UHGV virus genome: UHGV-0038964
DNA: 13,966 bases
From: a virus
Reading direction: 5' to 3' (one strand)
Positions 4,413-5,761 of the stretch are shown here, piece by piece; position 1 is the first letter of the stretch; every line of letters begins with the position of its first letter. Under the pieces are notes generated by a model that made no database searches, was not told where the DNA came from, and saw only the letters and a program-made list of their open reading frames with translations. The translations under genes were made by a program, and so were the position numbers.

Positions 4413-4418
4413 TTGCTG

Positions 4419-4682
4419 TTATTTTTTGATGGTATCGTCTTTTTGGTATACCGGATCGCTTCCCTTTGGCAACTGGAGGCTTAACTGCCGGTAGTGCCGT
4501 AGACGTTCCATGAAATAGGTGCGCAGGTTCTCTGGTTGCTCGCGGGCTACCTGTTCAGCTATGACAGGTATGTTCAATCGCTCTTTGTAGGCAACCCCCC
4601 TAGCAGCCAGGTCAACGTTAACTTTATTCCTTTCTTCCTGGCTTTTAGCTGCTATGTTCCATTCGTTCATATTAAATCCCAT
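4419..4682 (-). CDS. hot: Hot, homologue of DNA polymerase III theta subunit (HolE-like)
   Basis: The stretch [42 protein letters not shown] resembles E. coli theta ([42 protein letters not shown], recalled). Start is either the ATG at 4682 or the ATG at 4670. Confidence 0.7.
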
Positions 4683-5138
4683 CCAGAATAATTGAATAAC
4701 GGCTATTATTTAGTCGCCGCAATATCTTCAAAGTTTTTTTCTCACCCCATTGCTTTTTGCGCACAGCTTATCTGGCTTGCGGTGCGCCGAAATGTAAATT
4801 CGCCTTCAGAGTTATCCACAAAGTTATGCACTTGCAACGAGGCCATTTTCCTCATACTGTGTTTGCACACACAGGAAATGGATATTTTATTAATTGAATT
4901 TTATTAAATAATAATGATAAGGAGAAAATTTGAGATGTAATCATGACATTAATAGATAGGGCCTGCATTACAGGCCCCAACTACATCAAGGAATTCACAG
5001 TTCCCTGATTTTTATACCGAAAACATGTGCCGTAAGTTCACGTTAACGACTTTCTTTCACCGAATCCAACTATATAGAGGTTGGGTTTCTACGTCAACGT
5101 GAGAGCACACAGCTTTACATTTGACGAGGATTACCCTG

Positions 5139-5276
5139 ATGATTGTAATTTTTCAGTTTCTAAGTGCATTTTTAAATGCGCCTGTTCTTAGCCAAGTGCT
5201 GGCGATTGTCTTCATCGTGGTTCTGATATGGTTTTTCAAGTCAGTGATAAACAGAGGCGTGCGCTGGCTTATTTAA
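5139..5276 (+). CDS. Unannotated small hydrophobic protein (45 aa): MIVIFQFLSAFLNAPVLSQVLAIVFIVVLIWFFKSVINRGVRWLI
   Basis: Below the ORF-track size cutoff. ATG at 5139 with GAGGA about 8 nt upstream, TAA at 5274-5276; a single long hydrophobic segment with a basic C-terminus. It lies in a region otherwise free of coding sequence. Confidence 0.4.
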   Translation: MIVIFQFLSAFLNAPVLSQVLAIVFIVVLIWFFKSVINRGVRWLI

Positions 5277-5459
5277 TGTCGCGCTGAGATATTAATTCCC
5301 TTGCTGTTTAACCATTTTTTGTGTGTGCTGGTGAGCGTGTGAAGGCTCAATTTGTTGCCCACCAGTATTTACTATTTCTAAGCTCCACAGTGTCACTTCC
5401 GCACAAACAACTTAGCGCGGAATCAGTATTCGGCCCAAGATGTAAAAAGCCAACCTGCG

Positions 5460-5726
5460 TTATGGTTCGCATTTCCAAATAGTGTTCTGAACGCCCGTGC
5501 CGGGCGCGAGATGTGGATTAGCGTTCGCGCTATGCTGATATACGGCTTTAGACTTTCCATATTGCTGACAGGCTTTATCTGCGGTTTTTTGCAGGCTATC
5601 CAGCCCATACCAGCCATCAGACTGGATGCTTACCTTTTCACCGTCATTGTATTGCACCATTGCACACCCGGACATAGCCAGCATCGCACCGACAATAACG
5701 CTTTTCCATAAAACTCTATGCAACAT
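5460..5726 (-). CDS. Small lipoprotein (about 88 aa)
   Basis: Signal peptide MLHRVLWKSVIVGAMLAMSGC with a lipobox-like MSGC cysteine; the true start is probably the ATG at 5724-5726 (the track start at 5732 is a TTG). Confidence 0.55.
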   Translation of the reverse strand: MLHRVLWKSVIVGAMLAMSGCAMVQYNDGEKVSIQSDGWYGLDSLQKTADKACQQYGKSKAVYQHSANANPHLAPGTGVQNTIWKCEP

Positions 5727-5731
5727 ATACA

Positions 5732-5761
5732 AAAATCCCCTCTGTGAATTGAGGGGATTTT
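5732..5761 (-). terminator. Intrinsic terminator ending the upstream minus-strand operon
   Basis: Stem 5732-5742 pairs with 5751-5761 (AAAATCCCCTC / GAGGGGATTTT); on the - strand the stem runs into TTTTTGTAT. The same stem supplies the GAGGGG Shine-Dalgarno of the lipoprotein gene. Confidence 0.6.

Follow-up and report, generated by a model that had tools for sequence, protein, structure and literature searches.

The interval at positions 4683–5459 of the virus genome UHGV-0038964, of which we analysed a stretch of 13,966 nucleotides (nt; hereafter the window), lies between hot and a lipoprotein gene in a phage-plasmid of the P1 family, with c1, phd/doc, humD, lxr and hot arranged in P1 order. 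It contains a conserved gene for a hydrophobic peptide of 45 amino acids (aa), a promoter sequence derived from the host, and a leader with conserved structure on the plus strand. We interpret these tentatively as a type I toxin-antitoxin-like module, in which a membrane peptide is controlled by RNA and which would be a candidate new family, and we put the probability of this reading at about 0.45. The initial annotation of the interval had listed a small hydrophobic open reading frame (ORF), a promoter-like sequence, a start-stop pair and a GC hairpin within almost non-coding DNA; all of these elements were found by direct inspection of the window sequence, the observation is real and largely beyond chance, and its reading as a leader with a small hydrophobic peptide is supported.

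In the mechanism that we propose, a promoter copied from nrdA, with two DnaA boxes and a -35/-10 at 4832–4860, would drive rightward transcription, and the leader of about 270 nt would fold so that its 5' end pairs around the Shine-Dalgarno sequence and start codon of the peptide, leaving the 45-aa peptide untranslated. A stronger promoter at 5097–5069 would fire leftward to give an antisense RNA of about 110 nt, ending at least partly at the GC hairpin and fully complementary to the middle of the leader, which would repress peptide synthesis by base-pairing and by transcriptional collision. Activation of the nrdA-type promoter, through DnaA or the state of replication, or a fall in the antisense RNA would allow the peptide to be made, and as a type I-like toxin it would then enter the inner membrane. 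This predicted layout fits the published type I definition; it combines a small hydrophobic peptide, an occluding leader, a weak promoter on the toxin side and a stronger convergent promoter inside the leader.

Type I systems are defined by a hydrophobic toxin of 20–60 aa, a short structured mRNA and an antisense RNA of 60–200 nt (T1TAdb, PMC8594479). At this locus the peptide has 45 residues, a grand average of hydropathy (GRAVY) of 1.75 with a hydrophobic core and a basic tail, and a leader that covaries, and the predicted mRNA of about 430–480 nt is slightly over the usual 150–400 nt. On the antisense side there is a conserved promoter with 10 of 12 consensus positions (a match that is not beyond chance), a three-hairpin fold of the minus strand, and a weak terminator-like end.

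Four lineages of the module are known, the window (W), P1/P7, L009 and T6 types, and their hosts are all Escherichia, Salmonella or Shigella; our locus statistics rest on 92 collected loci, at least 33 of which are of the P7 type. Comparison of these sequences indicates that the ORF is a real, conserved and mostly unannotated gene, and two features belong to it:

5139–5276, plus strand: gene for the 45-aa single-pass hydrophobic peptide MIVIFQFLSAFLNAPVLSQVLAIVFIVVLIWFFKSVINRGVRWLI, recognised by its conserved ORF, its ratio of non-synonymous to synonymous substitution rates (dN/dS) and its intact loci.
5273–5295, plus strand: AU-rich stem-loop over the stop codon, predicted when the W, P1 and P7 types are folded at full length.

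The 45 codons are preceded by GAGGA at 5126–5130, 8 nt ahead of the ATG at 5139, and the description of this ORF as the only convincing frame was borne out, as no other ORF of 4683–5459 is conserved in relatives. Conservation of the peptide frame in related elements had been named as the test on which the idea should stand or fall, and the frame is kept: both frame and length are held, with zero indels, in three lineages with 17–25% nucleotide difference in the ORF, and 69% of the ORF is invariant across these three compared with 23–26% of the flanks, which is more than chance. Across lineages dN/dS is 0.28–0.48, substitutions are conservative, hydrophobic for hydrophobic, and the ORF is intact in 89 of the 92 loci. 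The P1 orthologue has 45 codons and is unannotated (L001 3701–3838, corresponding to complement 85992..86129 of AF234172.1), the L009 type has another 45-aa version and the T6 type a 42-aa version with a replaced C-terminus; the Prokaryotic Genome Annotation Pipeline (PGAP) lists a 'hypothetical protein' in some plasmids (WP_000123562.1, WP_162883679.1). An in-frame upstream TTG at 5121 was considered as the true start and rejected, as it is out of frame in P1. P1 and P7 form a hairpin at the same place as the 5273–5295 stem-loop from different sequence, and this may, with low confidence, be a 3' structure of the mRNA.

The suggestion that the peptide is a small membrane toxin is plausible but unproven; its size, hydrophobicity and basic tail would fit a toxin. 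Bulky and charged C-terminal residues after a transmembrane segment are described in PMC2887945. Two independent IS1 insertions near window positions ~5245–5260, in the same orientation and 7–8 nt apart, cut off the last 6–8 codons of the ORF in two different lineages (L007/L095 of the P1 type and protein P0003 of the window type), and in plasmid pLKSZ04 (L003) the same part of the ORF is hit by a 1-nt frameshift. The site may attract insertions, or the C-terminal tail may be selected against. Separately, 22 records of IncFII plasmids from Klebsiella, Enterobacter and Citrobacter contain an unannotated 33-aa ORF, MVLLLDAFLSAPLLSQCAATVFLLLLIWLKKME (L070 2492–2593, L071 2489–2590). It has 16 of 28 residues in common with the P1-type peptide, among them the AFLxAPxLSQ motif and a Trp ahead of a basic tail, and may be a distant relative. 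It was rejected as an independent copy of the architecture, its leader being non-homologous and comparable promoters, including a convergent one, being absent.

The promoter that we assign to the peptide gene lies well upstream of the ORF, and three features describe this part of the interval:

4812–4832, plus strand: two DnaA boxes, TTATCCACA (4812–4820) and TTATGCACT (4824–4832), invariant in four lineages.
4832–4860, plus strand: nrdA-type sigma-70 promoter, with -35 TTGCAA at 4832–4837, a 17-nt spacer and -10 TACTGT at 4855–4860.
4873–4915, plus strand: AT-rich leader segment including TTGAAT and TAATAAT, 26% invariant, with about 19 bp missing in P1/P7.

The arrangement is that of the nrdA promoter of the host, in which a TTGCAA -35 with a 17-nt spacer lies directly beside two DnaA boxes. 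A stretch of 42 bp (4809–4850) matches the ypaB/nrdA promoter on 5426 of 5426 complete E. coli chromosomes, the -35 and spacer align base for base with E. coli nrdA, and P1 records, including the reference annotation on the plus strand, label the site an 'nrdA-like promoter' with DnaA boxes. The sequence of the peptide gene promoter has been captured from that of E. coli nrdA. The P7 type is near-identical to the host nrdA promoter over about 100 bp, ending at the -10 (L006 1350–1455 versus L068 350–455), and the contrast with the 42 bp of the window suggests recent or repeated exchange with the host chromosome. The promoter has the same orientation to its downstream gene as at nrdA, so that the peptide mRNA stands in for nrdA mRNA; by analogy, transcription would start near 4867 and the leader would be about 272 nt long. 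Inspection by eye downstream of the -35 showed no convincing match to the NrdR-box consensus.

The promoter-like pair of the initial annotation, TTGAAT (4894–4899) and TAATAAT (4909–4915), did not hold up. Its spacing is only 9 nt, the promoter scan is silent there, and it lies in the AT-rich segment, which is poorly conserved and largely deleted in P1/P7; the conserved promoter is the nrdA-like one upstream.

The idea of a regulatory leader fared better, as 4915–5138 is the most conserved part of the locus and has a plus-strand structure with compensatory changes. The conservation peak is non-coding, with 88% of 5009–5105 invariant in three lineages compared with 69% for the ORF. An RNAalifold consensus of six sequences from the four lineages contains seven plus-strand helices, five of them with compensatory changes, and 94.3% of cells are paired. 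Six pairs are altered on both sides, a number reached by only 3 of 500 shuffles, with slid controls having 0–2 such pairs; the covariation score is 0.147 compared with 0.110 ± 0.009 for shuffles, and none of the 500 reaches it. The elements of the leader are as follows:

4918–4922 / 5134–5138, plus strand: helix 1, from RNAalifold.
4919–4959, plus strand: AAGGAG (4919–4924), ATG-TAA (4935–4940) and a 9-codon mini-ORF, in the 5' arms of helices 1 and 2.
4929–4940 / 5115–5127, plus strand: helix 2, from RNAalifold, 97% paired.
4959–4977, both strands: GC hairpin (helix 3), a perfect 7 bp between GGGCCTG (4959–4965) and CAGGCCC (4971–4977).
4983–5011, both strands: hairpin (helix 4), with A-U to G-C in the T6 lineage and an extra G.U pair closed on the minus strand.
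5037–5103, plus strand: helix 6 (5037–5048 / 5092–5103) around the hairpin of helix 7 (5062–5071 / 5079–5088), from RNAalifold.
5115–5138, plus strand: 3' arms of helices 2 and 1 around the peptide Shine-Dalgarno GAGGA (5126–5130), with CTTTACATTTGA invariant in all lineages.

Through helices 1 and 2 the AAGGAG/ATG-TAA region is paired with the flanks of the peptide Shine-Dalgarno, which would explain the retention of both ATGTAA and its complement TTACAT; the fold suggests that the primary transcript would be poorly translated. Helix 2 has one double-sided change and two one-sided changes through G-U (G-U to A-U and A-U to G-U), and pair 16/212 is U-A, U-G or C-G according to lineage. Helix 6 is 100% paired, and the T6 type shows an A-U to U-A change together with a G-C to G.U change that pairs on the plus strand only, while three to four G.U pairs in helix 7 would read as A.C on the minus strand.

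The strong ribosome-binding site followed by a start-stop pair is present, with AAGGAG at 4919–4924, ATG at 4935–4937 and TAA at 4938–4940, but as a unit it is not conserved, as P1/P7 have ATG CAA TCA TGA and the L009 type has GTG TAA. The sequence appears to be kept either through its pairing with UUACAUUUGA by the peptide Shine-Dalgarno or through an overlapping 9-codon ORF that begins with TTG. This mini-ORF, from TTG 4930 (5 nt past AAGGAG) to TAG 4957–4959, has 9 codons in the W, P1/P7 and L009 types, with one synonymous change (TGT to TGC), and its start is CTG in the T6 type; purifying selection is not clear, and translation of the mini-ORF is only a possibility. A 21-codon ORF from ATG 4943 was rejected as non-coding, having 1 synonymous and 6 non-synonymous changes relative to P1 and no start in the L009 type, as judged by eye from the alignments. 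In the T6 type, gene callers report a spurious 106-aa protein (P0007) that is a fusion of leader and ORF.

The perfect hairpin GGGCCTG/CAGGCCC was confirmed at 4959–4977. We estimate that a perfect 7-bp hairpin is expected by chance about 0.3 times per 780 random bases, and here the pairing survives two double substitutions that arose independently, one in P1/P7 (C-G to T-A) and one in the L009 type (G-C to A-T); the hairpin is more than chance. A search of the whole window against Rfam at the gathering score gave zero matches, and a tRNA/tmRNA scan likewise gave none.

Two further features on the minus strand would complete the module:

5069–5097, minus strand: convergent sigma-70 promoter TTGACG-17-TATAGT, found by promoter scan, with 10/12 consensus positions; this is the predicted 'PupfN' of P1.
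4948–5061, minus strand: predicted antisense RNA of about 110 nt, with a 13-nt single-stranded 5' tail followed by three hairpins.

The promoter is the only site of the region with at least 10 of 12 consensus positions, compared with 7 of 12 for the mRNA promoter, and both of its hexamers are intact in 92 of 92 loci, with variation in the spacer only. The antisense RNA that it would produce is predicted to start at about 5061 and to be wholly overlapped by the leader of the peptide mRNA, 5' of the ORF. Between 4943 and 5062 the minus strand folds better by 8–14 kcal/mol in every lineage; the consensus fold of the antisense stretch is -34.1 kcal/mol for the minus strand versus -23.4 for the plus strand, and single-sequence z-scores are -3.2 to -4.6 versus -2.5 to -2.7. 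On the minus strand only, the GC hairpin is followed by a U-rich tail, UAUCUAUUAA, or UUAUCUUUUAA in the L009 type, and the hairpin change of the L009 type gives C.A on the plus strand and G.U on the minus strand. The GC hairpin would be the terminator-like 3' hairpin of the predicted antisense RNA and would end it at least in part. A small RNA at this locus, as the initial annotation had proposed, is thus plausible but unproven. PMC7556043 cites a report that hot is expressed in lysogens, which implies some non-late leftward transcription upstream of hot; lysogen expression fits leftward sigma-70 transcription from this region and also permits read-through towards hot, which is possible.

Several observations weigh against an antisense-controlled toxin. 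The covariation statistics are thin, with only four lineages and two of the six aligned sequences near-duplicates. A promoter match of at least 10/12 arises by chance in about 35% of shuffles, and the hexamers at 5097–5069 sit within plus-strand helices 6 and 7; their invariance does not prove a promoter, because structure in the mRNA could explain it. The U-tail of the GC hairpin is weak and the terminator scan gave no call there, and in the T6 lineage the 5' hairpin predicted for the antisense RNA is broken, while the plus-strand helix that competes with it is compensated. Rfam, with its antitoxin families (among them Sok, rdlD, IstR, OhsC, Sib, OrzO, agrB and SymR) and its other RNA families, gave only four chance-level matches when searched on both strands of 4780–5340 at E≤10. 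For the peptide, Pfam and NCBIfam at E≤10 gave no toxin family and only unrelated matches far below threshold; the toxin families tested included Hok/Gef, Ldr, Fst, TisB, ShoB, Ibs and DinQ/Dql, and were negative in all four lineages and in the IncFII relative. PHROGs and PADLOC gave nothing significant for the peptide. We found no published function and no transcript, translation or toxicity data in the literature on upfM/N/O, P1 transcriptomes, type I systems in P1 or the peptide sequence. Among the 92 loci there is no excess of inactivating mutations in the ORF. Finally, knock-downs of upfN and upfO and deletions of upfM/upfN/upfO, the ORFs annotated here in P1, are tolerated in P1 (PMC10695390), which gives no sign of an essential antitoxin, although with respect to the toxin this tolerance is neutral.

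The main alternative, which we consider rather unlikely, is that the ORF encodes an ordinary, non-toxic small membrane protein, with a leader that tunes translation and an nrdA-type promoter that ties expression to replication status; the protein may modulate a host membrane protein or act in exclusion, and the minus-strand promoter would be incidental or would be the lysogenic promoter of hot. The evidence for the gene, its promoter and its leader fits this equally, and the lack of a toxin family match, an ORF that is almost never inactivated, neighbours (hot, humD and lxr) that concern replication and repair, and the reported expression of hot in lysogens (PMC7556043) are in its favour. Against it, the better folding of the minus strand spans exactly the distance from the 5097–5069 promoter to the hairpin.

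Improbable, in our view, is that the conserved stretch of about 190 nt is a small-RNA gene on either strand that acts in trans on targets in the host or phage, with the ORF separate or secondary as in a dual-function RNA. In its favour, conservation is higher in the non-coding block than in the ORF, shuffled sequences fold significantly less well than either strand, and compensatory changes occur in the hairpins, but there is no Rfam match even at E≤10, long-range helices tie the block physically to the ribosome-binding site of the peptide, and block and ORF always travel together.

We give slightly less credit still to the possibility that the region is only the upstream regulatory region or long 5' leader of hot, with LPhot and sigma-70 promoters, and that the plus-strand ORF occurs by chance. 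This would account for the predicted promoters of the P1 annotation, PupfN and P1/P2upfM, which lie here and are aimed at hot, and for the occurrence of hot and the module together in the T6 lineage outside P1. P7-type elements (at least 33 of the 92 loci), however, keep everything from the DnaA boxes through the end of an intact ORF without an adjacent hot, from which we conclude that the module is independent of hot; moreover, the ORF is under purifying selection and without indels, and several helices hold G.U pairs that exist only on the plus strand.

That the P1 annotation is correct, with UpfO, UpfN and UpfM as small proteins encoded on the minus strand of this region, is very improbable, for although all three are annotated in AF234172 and UpfM has a PHROG family (phrog_31823), ORFs of comparable length are lacking in the window (UpfO has 46 aa in P1, 58 aa in the P7 type and in the window, where its stop comes earlier, 42 aa when counted from an upstream GTG or 34 aa from the shared Met; UpfN has 65 aa in P1, 42 aa in the window and 102 aa in the P7 type; UpfM has 37 aa in P1 and the window has no ORF of at least 30 aa), the conserved parts of the upf ORFs fall on DnaA boxes and RNA helices, and the knock-downs and deletions already mentioned are without phenotype.

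The surroundings of the module are made up of the following:

4419–4682, minus strand: hot, the left neighbour of the interval.
4683–4728, minus strand: 5' untranslated region of hot and the equivalent of LPhot; LPhot of P1 (L001 3286–3309) aligns to 4705–4728.
5327–5334, plus strand: Chi-like octamer GCTGGTGA, the right end of homology between lineages.
5460–5732, minus strand: lipoprotein gene, the right neighbour of the interval.

The P1 reference annotation places upfO, upfN, upfM, the late promoter LPhot and several predicted promoters here on the minus strand, and 4683–4728 is part of hot and lies outside the module. P1 aligns to the window at 82% from 4420 to about 5333, and identical copies of 4600–5500 are present on plasmids of about 66–137 kb in E. 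coli, E. albertii, Shigella and Salmonella. P1 (L001 ~3895) and P7 have an exact Chi, GCTGGTGG, at the site of the Chi-like octamer, beyond which the downstream genes differ, with a lipoprotein gene in the window, pmgV in P1 and H-NS in the T6 type.

The module is present on 229 PLSDB plasmids and in 216 of 5426 complete E. coli genomes (about 4%), where it is plasmid-borne every time. No further lineages came to light in genomes, viral contigs, metagenomes or 1.8 billion protein representatives, which were searched with DNA and peptide patterns, by word index for proteins and with an exhaustive hidden Markov model search. In the P1-like phage RCS47 (FO818745.1) hot is matched (window 4413–4658) and the module is not, so the module is an accessory cassette that is lacking in some members of the family. 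The T6 lineage (L072 3500–4330, also L073–L077; GCA_012294745.1, contig AASDKW010000013.1) has hot and the module outside a P1 context, and the E. coli locus is flanked by type VI secretion genes (vgrG/DUF2345, TsiV) on one side and an H-NS homologue on the other. Elsewhere in the window, a 299-aa ORF on the minus strand (1488–2387) occupies the position of P1 pdcB and is unannotated in the identical plasmid NZ_CP036204.1, whose gene table leaves a gap from c1 to the small gene that precedes doc; the PLSDB table is incomplete and omits pseudogenes.

It is a more doubtful possibility that P1-family phage-plasmids carry an unrecognised type I family with a 45-aa 'AFLxAPxxSQ' toxin, a cis-antisense antitoxin of about 110 nt and a captured nrdA promoter with DnaA boxes. 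If so, killing or growth arrest would be wired to the replication-initiation status of the host, and the element would have a second, RNA-based addiction, stress or maintenance module beside phd-doc. A mobile element would have copied a host cell-cycle promoter to time a membrane peptide, an unusual link between replication status and a toxin-like gene, and the reference annotation of upfM/N/O in P1 would be wrong, having overlooked a conserved small gene with elaborate RNA control. Few phages are as widely used or as well annotated as P1, and in E. coli and Salmonella resistance genes are now being spread by P1-like phage-plasmids.

Among known systems, Ldr/Rdl of E. coli shares with this locus a small peptide that crosses the membrane once, carries A-P-[IV]-L as a motif in its helix and has Trp and basic residues after it, and a cis-antisense RNA encoded within the 5' leader, which is predicted here. 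There is no detectable homology, however: Ldr has 35 aa rather than 45, rdlD has no match in Rfam, and Ldr is a chromosomal repeat whereas the present locus is on a phage-plasmid with a captured nrdA promoter. Homology to Ldr, suspected from the common motif, was rejected, as hhalign against LdrA-C gave 2% probability over 10 columns.

The hok/sok system and its plasmid relatives srnB, pndA and flmA are likewise plasmid-borne. Their toxin mRNA is long and highly structured, its translation start is masked by long-range pairing, its leader includes an upstream reading frame, and a strong promoter within the leader gives rise to an antisense RNA (again, predicted here). The peptide is nevertheless outside the Hok/Gef family, and whereas mok overlaps the toxin ORF, the mini-ORF at 4930–4959 stops about 180 nt before the peptide ATG, which excludes translational coupling of the mok kind. 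A hok-style 5'-3' fold-back, between the upstream Shine-Dalgarno and a pyrimidine motif past the stop, was also rejected, as cognate duplex energies were no better than non-cognate ones. In tisB/istR-1, zorO/orzO and dinQ/agrB a long 5' untranslated region keeps the primary transcript inert, a strong ribosome-loading site lies far upstream, and the promoter is linked to DNA-stress regulation, all as could be the case here; their antitoxin RNA is divergent and does not overlap the mRNA (PMC8594479), control is by LexA rather than through DnaA boxes, and there is no sequence family match. The c4/ant system of P1 (immI) offers a precedent in the same phage family for gene control by a small antisense RNA, as predicted at this locus, although c4 is processed from the transcript of its own target and controls immunity, whereas here the RNAs would be convergent and the target a membrane peptide, and Rfam indicates no sequence similarity.

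A last comparison is with the promoter region of E. coli nrdAB. The DnaA boxes, -35 and spacer are nearly identical to those of the ypaB-nrdA intergenic region, over about 100 bp in the P7 type, but homology ends at the -10, the nrdA leader is absent, and a 45-aa peptide takes the place of ribonucleotide reductase. It is this host-derived DnaA-box promoter that is the distinctive feature of the candidate family.

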